A stretch of 64,000 bases of DNA from Anaerolineales bacterium (GTDB lineage Bacteria > Chloroflexota > Anaerolineae > Anaerolineales > UBA4823): positions 5,770 through 69,769 of the forward strand of contig JAFGQI010000170.1 of the NCBI GenBank assembly GCA_016935755.1. The letters run 5' to 3'. Positions 2,824 to 30,993 of this stretch are shown piece after piece. The notes beneath the pieces are model-generated. The model saw only the letters and a list, made by a program, of their open reading frames with translations, made no database searches and had not been told where the DNA came from. Numbering within the stretch: position 1 is the first letter of the stretch; every line of letters starts with the position of its first letter. The translations under genes and the position numbers were made by a program.

Positions 2824-4611
2824 TCACTCGTGTTTCCCTAGTTTTGCCCTTTCTTCAGCGGCGACGCTGGGCTCCAGCTTGCGGAACAGCGGGGCTGGCT
2901 GGACCATAGCCTGTCCGGGTTTGAGTTGGCTGGGAAACCACTGCACCCCGGCCTGGCCCGGGCGGTAGCGCAGCACAGTATGCTCGCCCAGAGAATCGAT
3001 GTGGGTCTCGGTGTACTGCTCGCCGAACAAGGGGGTGGTATATCCCAGGTACTGGTGCAGGCGCTCACAGCTGAAAGGCAGGTAAGGGGCAAACAGCACT
3101 TTGAGCGAATCGATCACCCGCAGGGCAGTATAGATGGTCTTGGCTGCGGCGGCTTTATCGGTCTTGATTTCAAACCAGGGCGCGGCGCTGTCCAGGTATT
3201 TATTCCCCTCCGAGGCCAGGCGCAGCGCCTCATTCAAGGCAGCGCGCAGGCGCGCCGCGCTCAGATGATCGCTTACGTTCTGAAAGCCCGCCTCGACAAC
3301 CTGCAGGATTTCCTGATCCTGCGGGCGCAGCTCGCCCGGCTCGGGGACCCGCCCCTCCCAGTTGCGATAGGCGAAGGACAGGACGCGGTTCGCCAGGTTG
3401 CCCCAGGTCGCCACCAGTTCATCGTTATTGCGGCGCACGAAATCATCCCAATCCCAGTCGGTGTCCTTGGTTTCGGGCATATTGGCGGTCAGGTAGTAGC
3501 GCAGCGGATCAGGATCGTAACGGCTGAGGAAATCCAGCCCCCACACCGCCCAGTTGCGGCTGCCGGAGATCTTCTGCCCCTCCAGGTTCATGAATTCATT
3601 GGCTGGCACATCGAAAGGCAGAGTCAGGCGCCGCCCATCTTCCTGGAAGATTTTCCCAAACCACTCCCCCGCCCCGATCAGCTGTCCAGGCCAGATAACC
3701 GCATGGAAGGGGATATTGTCCTTGCCGATGAAATAGAAGGCGCGCGCCTCCGGGTTGAACCACCAATCCTCCCAGGCCTTAGGCTGGCCTGACAGCTGCG
3801 CCCACTCGATCGCCGCTGAGAGATAGCCGATCACCGCTTCGAACCAGACATACAGGCACTTGCCCTGCCAGCCTTCCACCGGCACCGGGATGCCCCAATC
3901 CAGGTCGCGGGTGATGGCGCGCCCGTGCAGATGATCCGCCAGGATCTGGCCCAGCGATTGGCGCAGAACATTCGGGCGCCAGTAGCCCTGACGCTGGCGC
4001 AAGAAGTCGACAATGGCCGGTTCGAGCGCCCCCAGATCCATATAGAAATGTTCCGTCTCACGCAGTTCGGGCGTGGAGCCATCCGTCTTCGCCCGCGGGT
4101 CGATCAGCAGAGTGGCATCCAGCAGGCTGCCGCAGCCATCACACTGGTCGCCGCGTGCATTGGGATAGCCGCACAGATAGCAGGTGCCTTCGACATAGCG
4201 GTCGGGCAGGAAGCGCCCCTGGGAAGGCGCATACCACTGCTGCTGGCGCTCGGTGTACAGATAGCCGTTCTGTTTCAACGCCAGGAAGATCGCCTGGGAT
4301 ACCTTGAAGTGGTTTTCGGTATGCGTGCTGCTGAACAGATCATAGGCCAGGCCCAGCTTCTGGAACAGCTCGATAAACGAGGCGTGATACTTCTGGTAGA
4401 CCTGCAGCGGGGTGAGGCCTTCTGCATCGGCGCGCACAGTGACCGGGGTGCCATGTGCATCTGAGCCAGAGACCATGATCACCCGGTTACCCCGCAGGCG
4501 GTGGTAGCGGGCAAAGATATCCGCCGGCAGATAAGAACCAGTGATGTTGCCAACATGGATCTCCGAGTTGGCATATGGCCAGGCAACAGCTACAAGAATA
4601 GTTTCAGACAT
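2824..4611 (-). CDS. metG: methionine--tRNA ligase
   Basis: PYANSEIHVGN (HIGH-type motif), KISGSRN (KMSKS-type motif) and a Zn knuckle CYLCGYPNARGDQCDGCG. GGAGG lies 7 nt before the ATG. Confidence 0.95.
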   Translation of the reverse strand: MSETILVAVAWPYANSEIHVGNITGSYLPADIFARYHRLRGNRVIMVSGSDAHGTPVTVRADAEGLTPLQVYQKYHASFIELFQKLGLAYDLFSSTHTENHFKVSQAIFLALKQNGYLYTERQQQWYAPSQGRFLPDRYVEGTCYLCGYPNARGDQCDGCGSLLDATLLIDPRAKTDGSTPELRETEHFYMDLGALEPAIVDFLRQRQGYWRPNVLRQSLGQILADHLHGRAITRDLDWGIPVPVEGWQGKCLYVWFEAVIGYLSAAIEWAQLSGQPKAWEDWWFNPEARAFYFIGKDNIPFHAVIWPGQLIGAGEWFGKIFQEDGRRLTLPFDVPANEFMNLEGQKISGSRNWAVWGLDFLSRYDPDPLRYYLTANMPETKDTDWDWDDFVRRNNDELVATWGNLANRVLSFAYRNWEGRVPEPGELRPQDQEILQVVEAGFQNVSDHLSAARLRAALNEALRLASEGNKYLDSAAPWFEIKTDKAAAAKTIYTALRVIDSLKVLFAPYLPFSCERLHQYLGYTTPLFGEQYTETHIDSLGEHTVLRYRPGQAGVQWFPSQLKPGQAMVQPAPLFRKLEPSVAAEERAKLGKHE

Positions 4612-4643
4612 AAGAGACCTCCGGTGTAATATAAGCTCAGATC

Positions 4644-4674
4644 AAAAAAAAGGGCTGTCCCATGTGGACAGCCC
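4644..4674 (-). terminator. intrinsic terminator inside the metG leader
   Basis: Minus strand reads GGGCTGTCC-ACATG-GGACAGCCC followed by 8 T: a 9-bp GC-rich stem with a U-tract. The U-tract ends 32 nt before the metG ATG. Confidence 0.7.
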
Positions 4675-4696
4675 GCAGATTGCTTAGGAGTCAGGA

Positions 4697-4810
4697 TCAA
4701 CAAGAATCCCCAAACCAACTGGCTGCCCGTCGCTGAGCGCGACCCGACATGGCCATCATGGCCGCCATCGAGACACGCATCATCATATAGTTAATCCGCA
4801 CAGGCACCAT
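4697..4810 (-). CDS. candidate Met-rich leader peptide (37 codons) of metG
   Basis: MVPVRINYMMMRVSMAAMMAMSGRAQRRAASWFGDSC. It has 8 ATG codons, 7 of them within codons 9-21. AGGA lies 8 nt upstream. The ORF sits between the promoter and the terminator. Confidence 0.4.
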   Translation of the reverse strand: MVPVRINYMMMRVSMAAMMAMSGRAQRRAASWFGDSC

Positions 4811-4844
4811 CGCGCATATCCTTTCGAGCAAAGAAGTAAAGCAG

Positions 4845-4873
4845 AGTCTAAAACCAGGGCAAGTTTTTGTCAA
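4845..4873 (-). promoter_or_regulatory. sigma-70-type promoter of the metG leader
   Basis: Minus strand reads TTGACA (4873-4868), a 17-nt spacer, then TAGACT (4850-4845). Confidence 0.5.
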
Positions 4874-4893
4874 GAGCATTTCGCGCCCGGGAC

Positions 4894-6057
4894 TCAGCTG
4901 TACTCGCGCAGCAGACGCGCCTTGCCTGGCTGGCGCAATCGCCGCAAAGCCTTGCCTTCGATCTGGCGGATGCGCTCGCGGGTCAGGCCGAACTTTTGCC
5001 CCACCTCTTCCAGAGTGTACGGGCGGTCCTGGCCCAGGCCAAAGCGCAGGCGCAAAACACGCGCTTCGCGTGGAGATAGGGTCGCCAACACCTGCTCCAC
5101 CCGCTCACGCAAGATATTCTCATAGGCCATCTGGGCCGGGCTGGGAGAGGCGATGTCCTCGACATACATACCCAGCTCAGCCTCCTCATCCTCTCCCACA
5201 GGCGTCTCCAGAGAGAGCGGTGTCAGGGCAACCTGGAGCATCCAGCGCAGCTTCGAGATTTCCAAATCAAGCCGGCCGGCCAATTCTTCTACCGTGGGCA
5301 CGCGGCCAAGCTGCTGTTCCATCTCTTGTGAGACCTTGTAAACCTGGCGGAGCCGGTCAACCATGTGCACCGGCACACGAATGGTGCGTCCCTGATCGGC
5401 TATCGAGCGGATGATCCCCTGGCGGATCCACCAGGTGGCATAGGTGGAAAAGCGAAAGCCGCGCTGGTACTCAAATTTATCGACTGCTTTCATTAAGCCC
5501 AGGTTGCCCTCCTGGATTAGATCCAGAAATGGGACGCCCCGGCCCACATAGCGGCGGGCGACGCTGACCACCAGGCGAGTGTTGGCTTTAATCAGAAATT
5601 CGCGCGCAATCTGTCCATCTTTCACCAGGGCTTCAAGTTCCAGGCGACGTTCGGGGTTTTGTCCGTTCAGGCGAACCAGTTCATCTCGCGCCTGGCTTGC
5701 CCGGGCAATCCGCTTAGCCAGGGCCAATTCTTCTTCCACGGTCAGCAAAGGGGTGAGCGACATCTCTTTTAGATAGAGCGTCACCGCATCATCGCCAGTC
5801 GTATATTCCAGCTGGCCCGGGTCCTTCTCCTCAACCTCTTGTAGGGGAGTTGCCTGCTCATCCGCCTCCTGCTCCAAAATTGCCACGCCCTGGAACTGCA
5901 ATGCCTCCACCAGGAGGGCCAGTTGATCCTTATTTTTCGAGGCGGCAGGATAGATTTCAAGGATGTCTTCGATACTGAGATATCCCTGTTGGCTGGCTTT
6001 GGCAACCAGCCTACTAAAAACTTGACTCCTCGGTGCAGTTTTATCTGGGCGAGCCAT
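4894..6057 (-). CDS. sigA: primary RNA polymerase sigma factor (sigma-70 family)
   Basis: Regions 1.2 to 4 are recognisable: FLDLIQEGNLGLMKAVDKFEYQRGFRFSTYATWWIRQGIIRSI, and LEEVGQKFGLTRERIRQIEGKALRRLR. Confidence 0.95.
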   Translation of the reverse strand: MARPDKTAPRSQVFSRLVAKASQQGYLSIEDILEIYPAASKNKDQLALLVEALQFQGVAILEQEADEQATPLQEVEEKDPGQLEYTTGDDAVTLYLKEMSLTPLLTVEEELALAKRIARASQARDELVRLNGQNPERRLELEALVKDGQIAREFLIKANTRLVVSVARRYVGRGVPFLDLIQEGNLGLMKAVDKFEYQRGFRFSTYATWWIRQGIIRSIADQGRTIRVPVHMVDRLRQVYKVSQEMEQQLGRVPTVEELAGRLDLEISKLRWMLQVALTPLSLETPVGEDEEAELGMYVEDIASPSPAQMAYENILRERVEQVLATLSPREARVLRLRFGLGQDRPYTLEEVGQKFGLTRERIRQIEGKALRRLRQPGKARLLREYS

Positions 6058-6143: not shown

Positions 6144-6656
6144 TTATTCTTTCTCCAATGAGCGCAGCGCGCTCAGACGAGGATCGATATCGTCATCCTC
6201 ATGGTTGCAGGTGGTTTCATTCAAGTTCTCCCCGCATACCGGACACAGGCCCTTACAGTCCGGCTTGCATAATGGGCTGATGGGAATAGCCAGGATCATC
6301 TCTTCCCGCAGCATCGGAGCCAGATCAATTTTTCCGCTTTCAGGCATCAATAAACCGGTCTCTGTGGTCTGGTTGAGGGTAAAGGCATACAATTCTGTGA
6401 AATCTGCCTCCAGAGGCTGCTGGAAATCCACCAGGCAGCGTACGCACTCAGAAGACGTGCTGGCTTTCATGTTCACCTGCACCAACAAACCCTGGGCAGT
6501 GCGCGTGACGCGCACAAATCCCTTCAGGTCACTTAAATTCATGTCCGGGGGCAGGTAGACCGATGGAGCCTCAATCGGGAAGTCCCGAGTGTAGCCTACC
6601 GTCTGATGTACGATAAAACCAACGTTAAGGGTAAGAAAATCGCGAGAGTCATTCAC
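6144..6656 (-). CDS. DUF177 / YceD-family protein
   Basis: C-terminal CKPDCKGLCPVCGENLNETTCNHE followed by an acidic tail is typical of YceD/DUF177. Confidence 0.8.
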   Translation of the reverse strand: MNDSRDFLTLNVGFIVHQTVGYTRDFPIEAPSVYLPPDMNLSDLKGFVRVTRTAQGLLVQVNMKASTSSECVRCLVDFQQPLEADFTELYAFTLNQTTETGLLMPESGKIDLAPMLREEMILAIPISPLCKPDCKGLCPVCGENLNETTCNHEDDDIDPRLSALRSLEKE

Positions 6657-10065: not shown

Positions 10066-10142
10066 GGGTGGATAGCTCAGTTGGTTAGAGCACTGCGTTG
10101 ACATCGCAGAGGTCGTAGGTTCGAGCCCTATTCCACCCACCA
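10066..10142 (+). tRNA. tRNA-Val (anticodon GAC), CCA encoded
   Basis: Cloverleaf folded by hand. Acceptor GGGTGGA/TCCACCC. D arm AGCTC-AGTTGGTTA-GAGC. Anticodon stem CTGCG/CGCAG with loop TTGACAT. T arm GTAGG-TTCGAGC-CCTAT. Then A-CCA. Confidence 0.9.
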
Positions 10143-10159
10143 CAATTCCATATTTGCAA

Positions 10160-10407
10160 ACGCAACGACCGGGACGAGTAACTGCTCGAGCTTCGACAGG
10201 GAATGGAGATCAGCGACTGAGAGTCTCCTGCGAAAGCCAAACGGCGAAAACCACCCGCGAGCGTGACCCTGAACAGGGCTGCCCCTCAGTAAGGTGAACG
10301 GCTGACACCGTTATCCGTCGCACAGAGATGCTCAATCTTGAGCAATCTGGGTGGAACCGTGTGAGTTTTTACTCTCGCCCCAGGCCGGGCGAGATTTTTT
10401 GTTTTTT
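10160..10407 (+). promoter_or_regulatory. T-box leader (Thr specifier) with terminator, controlling thrS
   Basis: T-box sequence AATCTGGGTGGAACCGTGTGAG at 10344-10365. Terminator CTCGCCC-CAGGCC-GGGCGAG followed by ATTTTTTGTTTTTT (10374-10407). Candidate specifier ACC followed by A at 10250-10253 in GAAAACCACC. Stem I distal GGAGA..AGAGTCTCC. Confidence 0.8.
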
Positions 10408-29566: not shown

Positions 29567-30778
29567 TTACAACCCGGCTGCTTTTCTCAGCGCATCGGCT
29601 TTGCCCGTCCGCTCCCAGGGCAGGTCCAGGTCATCGCGGCCGAAGTGCCCGTAGGCCGCCACCTGGCGGTAGATCGGCCGCCGCAGGCCCAGGTCGCGGA
29701 TGATGGCTCCGGGGCGCAGGTCGAAGTGCTCCAGGATCAGTTGGGCAATCTGCTCATCAGAGATTTTGCCCGTGCCGAAGGTCTCCACGTTGACGCTGAG
29801 AGGGTGCGCCACGCCGATGGCGTAGGCCACCTGGATTTCACAGCGGCTGGCTAACCCTGCGGCAACGATATTCTTGGCTGCCCAGCGCGCCGCGTAGGCG
29901 GCCGAGCGGTCCACCTTGGTGGGATCCTTACCGCTGAAGGCGCCGCCGCCATGCCGGCCCATGCCGCCATAGCTGTCGACAATAATCTTCCGCCCGGTCA
30001 CCCCGGCGTCGCCCTGCGGGCCGCCGATGACAAAACGGCCGGTCGGATTGACGAAGATCTTCATCTGGTCGTCTACCATCTCGGGTGGGATGATCGGCTT
30101 GATAATATGCTCGATTACCGCGGCGCGGATCTCTTCCTGTGAAATATCTGGGGCATGCTGTGTGCTCACCAGGACGGTATCCACCCGCACGGGCCGGCCG
30201 AAACTGTATTCCACCGTCACCTGGGTCTTGCCGTCCGGGCGCAGCCAGGGCAAAGTCCCGTCCTTGCGCTTGACACTCAACTGGCGGGCTAACTTATGCG
30301 CCAGGTAGATGGGCATCGGCATCAGCACGGGGGTCTCATCGCAGGCATAACCGAACATCATGCCTTGATCGCCCGCACCGATGGTATCCAGTTCATCGGC
30401 GCTCATCTCCCCGGTCTTGGTCTCCAGAGCGTGGTTCACGCCCATAGCGATATCCCCCGACTGCTTGGCAATTGACAGCAGCACGCCGCAGTTATTGCCA
30501 TCCAGGCCTTGCGAAGTGTCATCGTAACCAATTTCGATGATCACCCGGCGAGCCAGGTCATCAAAGTTGAACTGGGCATTGGTAGTAATTTCGCCCAACA
30601 GCAGCACAAAACCCGTCTTCGAGGCCGTTTCACAGGCCACGCGAGAAGCAGGATCCTGCTCCAGACAGGCGTCTACCACCGCATCGCTGATCTGGTCGCA
30701 CAGCTTGTCCGGATGGCCTTCGGTCACCGATTCAGAGGTGAACAGCAGGCGGGGTGAGCTCATAAACGTAGATGTCAT
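29567..30778 (-). CDS. metK: S-adenosylmethionine synthetase
   Basis: [53 protein letters not shown]. Confidence 0.97.
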
Positions 30779-30789
30779 ATATTCTCCTT

Positions 30790-30960
30790 TTTTAATAAGA
30801 TTTGCCCCTTCCGGTCTACAAGAAAGGGCAAAACGCGAGAACTCACTGCCGCCCTCTCATCTTCCAGAACCTCCGTCTGCCGGAATTGGCACCGTCGATT
30901 CATATAGAACCCGGTTGCCGAGGCTTCATAGGGCCGGTCCCTCCGCCTCTCTGGATAAGA
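30790..30960 (-). promoter_or_regulatory. SAM-I (S-box) riboswitch with expression-platform hairpin
   Basis: Minus strand reads TCTTATCCAGAGAGGCGGAGGGACCGGCCCTATGAAGCCTCGGCAACC..GGTGCCAATTCCGGCAG..GGAAGATGAGA, matching the S-box core consensus from memory. It is followed by the TTTGCCCTTTC..GAAGGGGCAAA hairpin and then the AAGGAG RBS of metK. Confidence 0.85.
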
Positions 30961-30993
30961 GCGCCATTTAGGGGCTATAAATTTGTAGACAAC

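Follow-up and report, generated by a model that had tools for sequence, protein, structure and literature searches.

We analyzed a 64-kb stretch of DNA (positions 5,770 to 69,769 of contig JAFGQI010000170.1, hereafter the window) from an Anaerolineales bacterium of the phylum Chloroflexota. Our subject is the leader of metG, the gene encoding methionyl-tRNA synthetase (MetRS). In the window metG follows sigA on the same strand, separated from it by an intergenic gap of 282 nucleotides (nt); all leader and metG coordinates below refer to the minus strand. An earlier note, made from the sequence alone, held that this gap is not empty, and our inspection bears this out: it contains a promoter, a short Met-rich open reading frame (ORF), and an intrinsic terminator, arranged in that order before metG (Table 1).

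The promoter, TTGACA-17-TAGACT, is near consensus (10 of 12 matches) and ranks at the top of only three promoter-like sites in 5 kb. A 5′ untranslated region (UTR) of ~28 nt carrying a Shine-Dalgarno (SD) motif is predicted to follow, as it is in the closest relatives, and leads to an ORF of 37 codons with AGGA 8 nt upstream of its ATG. Eight of these codons specify Met, seven of them within codons 9–21 and including ATGATGATG at 4786–4778. The terminator that comes next has a stem of nine pairs, seven of them G-C, a loop of sequence ACATG, and a T8 tract that ends 32 nt before the metG ATG (4611). Within the ORF, the stretch we call segment 2, GGGCAGCC (4728–4721), complements GGCTGTCC (4673–4666) in the 5′ arm of the terminator over 8 base pairs (bp), one of them G-U. 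Every part that the earlier note described was found at the coordinates it gave.

Table 1. Coordinates of the metG leader, its neighbors, and other RNA sensors in the window
Feature	Coordinates	Strand	Identification or remark
sigA	4894-6057	-	NCBIfam identification; same strand, directly upstream of leader/metG
-35 hexamer TTGACA, leader/metG promoter	4868-4873	-	direct read; CTTGACAAA aligned and conserved in relatives
-10 hexamer TAGACT, 17-nt spacer from -35	4845-4850	-	TAnACT kept in alignment
SD-like AAAGGA, 8 nt 5′ of leader ATG 4810	4819-4824	-	AGGA at 4822-4819
Leader ORF, 37 codons plus TGA (4699-4697), predicted product MVPVRINYMMMRVSMAAMMAMSGRAQRRAASWFGDSC	4697-4810	-	direct read; orthologous Met-rich ORFs
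Possible segment 1 AUGGUGCCUGUG, start codon and codons 2-4	4799-4810	-	tentative; pairs with segment 2 in untranslated RNA fold
Putative regulatory Met-codon cluster, 7 ATG in 13 codons	4748-4786	-	in-frame, conserved in relatives
CGCGC(C) box between Met cluster and segment 2, read as Arg-Ala codons	4737-4741	-	alignment consensus CGCGCC
Segment 2 GGGCAGCC, antiterminator 5′ strand, near copy of terminator arm 4	4721-4728	-	pairing with segment 3
Segment 3 GGGCTGTCC, terminator 5′ arm, shared with antiterminator	4666-4674	-	
Segment 4 GGACAGCCC, terminator 3′ arm	4652-4660	-	
U-tract T8 of intrinsic terminator	4644-4651	-	
metG SD GGAGGT	4617-4622	-	conserved in alignment
metG, methionine–tRNA ligase, 595 amino acids, putative regulated gene	2824-4611	-	TIGR00398, 486.8 bits vs cutoff 336
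tRNA-Val(GAC)	10066-10142		just upstream of thrS T-box
thrS T-box leader, Thr specifier ACC	10156-10385	+	E 1.3e-15, full-length, 71.2 bits vs gathering 93
metK	29567-30778	-	TIGR01034, 585.8 bits
SAM-I riboswitch, directly upstream of metK	30854-30961	-	92 bits

Chance does not account for the Met cluster. When all six frames of the window are scanned, the density of in-frame ATG codons peaks at seven per 15 codons, a value reached only at the leader, and the runner-up has five. The pattern formed by segment 3, the loop, and segment 4 occurs once in the window and in none of 100 shuffles. The minimum free energy (MFE) of the whole leader gave an unremarkable z-score of -1.14, so thermodynamic stability by itself neither supports nor refutes the element. 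No promoter-like site was found in the 32 nt between the U-tract and the metG ATG, and the corresponding distance is 22–60 nt in most relatives; with no room for a promoter after the U-tract, transcription of metG must read through the terminator.

We sought the leader among related loci by scanning with the MetRS protein in one genome per GTDB species. This yielded 80 metG loci, all from Chloroflexota and mostly labelled Anaerolineales or Anaerolineaceae, with MetRS identities of 66–82%. A strict automatic test asked for a terminator with a T-tail, at least three in-frame ATG per 15 codons, and, lying in between, a complement of at least 6 bp to the terminator 5′ arm; 35 of the 80 loci passed. 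By eye, the count rises to ~45, the ~10 extra loci having an imperfect hairpin or tail. Alignment of the 35 leaders revealed conserved blocks in the following order: the promoter; either an SD (AAAGGA or AAAGGT) or an ATG 6–9 nt after the -10 box; the Met cluster; CGCGC(C); segment 2 (GGRCAGCC); a stop codon; segment 3 (GGCTGYCC); a loop; segment 4 (GGRCAGCC); a T-run; and the metG SD. An ortholog alignment was among the checks suggested in the earlier note; ours shows conservation of the Met codons and their frame, of the stop position, of the antiterminator segment, and of the terminator over the above range of MetRS identity.

Individual parts of the leader can also be followed across the full set of 80. 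An exact TTGACA-N16–18-TAnnnT promoter lies ~205–334 nt upstream of metG in 44 loci, and the terminator stem sequence GGCTGYCC...GGRCAGCC recurs 5′ of metG in most. The majority of loci with the conserved stem additionally possess a short Met-cluster ORF, with products such as YSMAMMCSMAM, MMSMSMAAM, MSMMMRMEM, MINMVMNMAM, and MHTMMKTMNMVM. We further scanned metagenomes with the pattern CAGCC-N-GGCTGYCC-N-GGRCAGCC, which is unspecific and served as a control only. Most of its 120 hits are chance matches inside genes; in only four (L084, L134, L158, and L160) does a Met cluster occur together with a T-tail, and all four lie directly before MetRS.

The leader unit travels with metG and not with sigA. 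Whatever gene lies upstream, the unit always sits directly before metG and in the same orientation: sigA adjoins it in 25 leader-bearing loci and is missing from that position in 19 others. If the hairpin were a plain sigA terminator and the remainder an ordinary metG promoter region, the placement of sigA in the window and in those 25 loci would be accounted for. However, the promoter lies upstream of the terminator rather than downstream, the hairpin is situated 220 nt past the sigA stop, and the 19 loci keep the whole unit without sigA before it. Ordinary terminators, moreover, are not conserved in sequence, and the recurring metG stem is unlike them in this regard. We find this explanation scarcely credible.

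Could the unit instead be an independent small gene, unrelated to metG, that specifies a Met-rich micro-protein or a small RNA of ~190 nt with a promoter and terminator to itself? Cu(I) is a possible ligand of Met-rich motifs, and promoter, ORF, and terminator do make a complete unit. Functions in trans would also have a precedent, in that two reports on Sinorhizobium describe such functions for an attenuator RNA, rnTrpL, and a leader peptide, peTrpL (PMC7968998, PMC7298713). Yet the peptide is not conserved past its Met codons and the part fixed by pairing, the unit never leaves its place before metG, with no promoter fitting in the intervening 32 nt, and the conserved segment-2 copy of the terminator arm would be left without explanation. 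We therefore regard an independent gene as highly improbable.

If a ribosome reads the Met codons, the leader ORF should be under selection as a coding frame. We examined 27 codons up to and including segment 2, with the frame set by segment 2, for a total of 862 codons. This frame contains 161 ATG codons and two stops; the other two contain nine and two ATG codons, and 76 and 19 stops, respectively. Counted over the leaders of the relatives, ATG occurs 189 times in-frame vs 10 times out-of-frame. From the last Met codon to segment 2 the distance is 10, 13, 16, 19, 25, or 28 nt, equal to 1 modulo 3 in 32 of 35 leaders, which indicates that length changes come in whole codons. A stop codon, be it TGA, TAA, or TAG, occupies an aligned position 21–26 nt before segment 3 in most leaders. 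Numbering codons back from segment 2, Met is found at -7 in 26 of 32 leaders, at -9 in 22, and at -12 in 17, and it makes up 37% of codons -15 to -5. The residues between the Met codons vary freely, and nowhere outside the Met codons and the RNA-constrained part is the peptide conserved.

Start signals point in the same direction. Of the 35 aligned leaders, 33 have an ORF with an SD-led or leaderless-type start: ~21 have an SD-like motif 3–12 nt before an in-frame start codon, and ~10 have an ATG 6–9 nt after the -10 box. In the latter group, which lacks an SD (L015, L017, L020, L025, L027, L061, L062, L071, L075, and L079), a start codon so close to TAnnnT implies a leaderless mRNA as the template for translation of the sensing ORF. 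RNAalifold, for its part, found no consensus fold over the Met cluster. Taken together, the open frame, whole-codon gaps, placed stop, Met positions, lack of a fold, and start signals speak for selection on Met codons that are read by the ribosome rather than on an RNA motif. We argue that the leader ORF carries the evolutionary signatures of a coding frame, with translation itself a prediction.

These observations bear on the idea that the leader acts as an untranslated cis-regulatory RNA, whether a divergent T-box with an AUG specifier, a riboswitch-like element, or an operator bound by MetRS, as Escherichia coli ThrRS binds its own leader. Riboswitches and T-boxes both commonly rely on alternative terminator and antiterminator folds, thrS and metK of this genome are preceded by a T-box and a SAM riboswitch, respectively, and the CAUG repeats of the cluster contain CAU, the anticodon of tRNA(Met). 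The earlier note had stated that the leader is without a T-box core and had proposed an Rfam search. Neither T-box RF00230 nor any other relevant family matched the leader (4550–4950) at E ≤ 10; the weak matches obtained are driven by the terminator and fall below threshold (mmgR, 24 bits vs 41; sbrA, 23 vs 45). The same T-box model does detect the thrS leader, which renders its silence before metG meaningful. We accordingly rejected a T-box or riboswitch reading of the metG leader, and likewise that of a structured aptamer built from ATG repeats, given the RNAalifold result over the cluster. An untranslated RNA also does not predict a maintained frame, indels in multiples of three, a placed stop of varying identity, or SD-led and leaderless starts. 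We judge it very improbable.

We next consider the pairing alternatives. In the alignment, terminator segments 3 and 4 are paired in 99.4% of cells, with 19 compensatory cells (slid-register controls, 33–59%), and segments 2 and 3, which would form the antiterminator, in 95.7% (controls, 24–47%). Given the complete alignment, RNAalifold recovered the terminator; with segment 4 cut away, it recovered the 2:3 helix. Similarly, when the window RNA was restricted to the stretch running from just downstream of a stalled ribosome through segment 3, its MFE structure contained the full 2:3 helix, and adding segment 4 shifted the MFE structure to the terminator. Once the footprint of a ribosome stalled at the last Met codon was masked, 29 of 35 leaders had the antiterminator in their MFE structure, vs 10 of 35 for naked RNA. 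A fold analysis of this kind had been suggested in the earlier note; as modeled here, terminator and antiterminator are mutually exclusive pairings, both of them conserved. The geometry is such that the last Met codon lies 13–25 nt from segment 2 in most leaders and the stop 10–22 nt past it.

Based on these features, we consider it likely that the leader controls metG by ribosome-mediated transcription attenuation, matching expression to how much charged elongator Met-tRNA is available. RNA synthesis would start from TTGACA/TAGACT, and a ribosome would load on the leader ORF. When Met-tRNA(Met) is plentiful, it would pass the seven AUG codons and segment 2 to reach the stop between segments 2 and 3; with 2:3 pairing blocked, the 3:4 hairpin and its U8 tract would form, and transcription would terminate 32 nt before metG. 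Under a shortage of Met-tRNA(Met), whether from Met starvation or low MetRS activity, the ribosome would stall in the AUG cluster. As the cluster ends 19 nt before segment 2, this segment would remain free to pair with segment 3 as the latter emerges, no terminator would form, and transcription would read into metG. Ribosome stalling, its coupling to the polymerase, and the direction of regulation are what we infer here from the computed parts, conservation, frame, and exclusive pairings. The Met-sensing leader-peptide attenuator proposed for metG in the earlier note thus finds support in the comparative data, and the checks run to refute it refuted nothing.

Several points weigh against this interpretation. 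About 35 of the 80 related loci are without the element. Covariation in the antiterminator is thin: its two compensatory cells both come from a single leader, L033, in which segments 2, 3, and 4 are altered together (CGGCAGCT / AGCTGCCG / CGGCAGCT). Its support is mostly conservation, as would equally be seen if GGRCAGCC were constrained for some other reason. The helix is short, at 8 bp and about -10 kcal/mol in the consensus, and on average ~7 kcal/mol weaker than the terminator state, a deficit which means that the decision must be kinetic. A 1:2 anti-antiterminator did no better than dinucleotide shuffles, reaching p ≤ 0.05 in only four of 35 leaders; in the window, the MFE structure of the untranslated RNA pairs segment 2 with AUGGUGCCUGUG at the ORF start (p = 0.235 vs shuffles). 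In the window, furthermore, the stop codon sits 22 nt after segment 2, where a terminating ribosome would not physically cover that segment, and from this geometry the block on 2:3 pairing must be steric or kinetic. Finally, MetRS also charges the initiator tRNA, so initiation on the leader depends on the very enzyme it is proposed to regulate.

The insignificance of 1:2 pairing led us not to adopt a four-segment model of the trp type. Of the 1:2/2:3/3:4 scheme entertained in the earlier note, the 2:3 and 3:4 pairings are conserved across the family, and a conserved 1:2 pairing is not significant. Conservation of the CGCGC(C) box (alignment columns about 171–176) is nearly as good as that of the pairing segments, with Arg at codon -4 or -2 and Ala at -3, and the 2:3/3:4 model does not explain it. 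Possible roles for the box are pausing, closure of a hairpin with the Met cluster, and an effect of the peptide.

Lack of a conserved 1:2 element, which gives the trp leader its default-off state, would fit a generic translation-coupled attenuator or upstream ORF. In such a device readthrough would track translation capacity without amino-acid specificity, as in pyrBI-type or antibiotic-sensing leaders, and the Met codons would be incidental or serve another use, for example as internal starts. The ORF, terminator, and antiterminator would indeed act alike for any stall. What this account does not accommodate is that the Met codons are the sole conserved feature of an otherwise free peptide, most strongly at codons -7 and -9 as tallied above, that they precede the one gene whose product charges tRNA(Met), and that no more than five ATG per 15 codons occur elsewhere in the 64-kb window. 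We consider it improbable, and favor a switch that reads Met codons specifically.

A further, more speculative reading is that this would be the first Met-codon leader-peptide attenuator, kept as a family in Anaerolineales-type Chloroflexota and in control of an essential gene, metG, and that it may integrate, above all in its leaderless variants, failure of initiation (fMet-tRNA) with failure of elongation (Met-tRNA). It draws on the fact that MetRS charges both the initiator and the elongator tRNA(Met), and on the apparent start of about one-third of the family at a leaderless AUG. To our knowledge, no attenuator integrating the two has been described; we hold this possibility to be tentative and somewhat doubtful.

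The proposed metG switch follows the logic of T-box synthetase control and of pheM-pheST. In the E. coli pheM-pheST system, a leader ORF rich in cognate codons and a set of alternative hairpins control a synthetase gene by the charging of its own tRNA. The metG leader resembles it in having an ORF rich in the cognate codon, an antiterminator/terminator choice, and an aminoacyl-tRNA synthetase as the target; it differs in its use of Met rather than Phe, its occurrence in Chloroflexota rather than a Proteobacterium, the absence of sequence similarity, and the apparently leaderless state of part of the family. With the trp, his, leu, thr, ilv, and phe leaders it shares regulatory codons, a 2:3 antiterminator opposed to a 3:4 terminator, and a U-tract. 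None of their Rfam models matches it, however, and its target is a synthetase rather than a biosynthetic operon. Unlike these classical biosynthetic leaders, it also uses Met, has no conserved 1:2 pairing that we could find, and contains an ORF that runs through segment 2 and stops before segment 3.

Leader-peptide attenuation of synthetase genes outside Proteobacteria has been predicted by comparative genomics before. Seliverstov et al. (2005, PMC1262725) predicted classical attenuators for Streptomyces trpS and leuS, and Naville & Gautheret (2010, PMC2965389) predicted leader peptides of the His type upstream of hisS paralogs/hisZ in bacilli, cases that also show a lineage replacing a T-box by a leader peptide. 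The metG leader is a prediction of the same kind, in other phyla and for another amino acid, and neither paper mentions metG or Met codons. In mycobacteria, polycysteine leaderless short ORFs are reported to act as Cys-responsive attenuators of downstream genes (bioRxiv 10.1101/834739). The resemblance lies in a short ORF with a run of a single codon and in the leaderless start of ~10 of 35 metG leaders, and the differences in the ~28-nt 5′ UTR and SD of the window leader, its intrinsic terminator and antiterminator, and its Met codons. Met-specific T-box riboswitches, known from the met leader of Staphylococcus aureus (PMC3771891) and also before metS/metG in Firmicutes, likewise couple tRNA(Met) charging to antitermination. 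A T-box, though, binds uncharged tRNA directly and without translation, and the metG leader is without a T-box core or Stem I features.

Documented leader-peptide attenuation concerns mainly Trp, His, Leu, Thr, Ile/Val, and Phe, in Proteobacteria, Actinobacteria, and a few Firmicutes. Against this background the metG leader is very probably a known kind of mechanism, mechanistically conventional, with an apparently new amino-acid specificity, target, and phylum. The earlier note knew of no Met-codon attenuator for metG; we too found no description of a Met-codon leader or of metG attenuation in the literature searched, which was mostly outside subscription journals, such that an earlier prediction is possible. 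A Met-specific attenuator, if true, would fill a gap for an amino acid that also starts every protein, and would extend leader-peptide attenuation to Chloroflexota. Beyond this, a conserved small ORF that gene callers miss offers a rule for annotation, and the leaderless variants provide a natural comparison of SD-led with leaderless sensing ORFs.

Several loci in the collection stand apart. One leader-bearing locus, L056 (contig DYIZ01000027.1), carries the label Candidatus Aquidulcis, a taxon that NCBI taxonomy assigns to the class Limnocylindria and not to Anaerolineae; either the element reaches beyond Anaerolineae or the bin is mislabelled. More distant lineages (L032, L035, L046, L054, L069, and L077) have short ORFs with fewer Met codons, such as MDSKCMLMCSHIGRFTAR and MVMQKQMAMQMYFLFRRR, at about -145 to -40 before metG in L032, L035, and L046. 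Their terminators are different, AACGCTGGC-loop-GCCAGCGTT or AGGCTGGC-TGAG-GCCAGCTT, and only a 5-bp GCCAG copy lies upstream. These arrangements (L032/L035/L046, L054, and L069/L077) may represent the same switch in diverged form, or versions of it that arose independently.

At 19 related loci lacking the leader, Rfam at gathering score found no T-box or other element before metG. In L012, L023, and L038, which have no Met leader, a YceD/DUF177-like gene with the C-terminal motif ...CPVCGGNRN... ends just 5′ of metG. The window contains a YceD-like gene at 6144–6656 on the minus strand, upstream of sigA, and the adjacency in these three loci indicates that the sigA-leader-metG arrangement has been rearranged in some lineages. 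Four lineages lacking the Met leader have cobalamin riboswitches ~2.7 kb downstream of metG (plus strand: L058, 7553–7692; L067, 7639–7778; L068, 7405–7547; L070, 7568–7708).

Elsewhere in the window, Rfam at gathering score reported only the SAM riboswitch and one tRNA. The earlier note had described a canonical T-box at thrS; the T-box is there and full-length, with a score below the gathering threshold, meaning that standard annotation would miss it. Three types of RNA sensor, all before translation- or Met-related genes, thus lie within 30 kb: metG has a predicted leader peptide, thrS a T-box, and metK a SAM riboswitch. The thrS leader has a terminator of its own (CTCGCCC...GGGCGAG followed by a T-run), and thrS probably starts at ATG 10425, after GAAAGGAG, rather than at position 10328 of the mechanical ORF.

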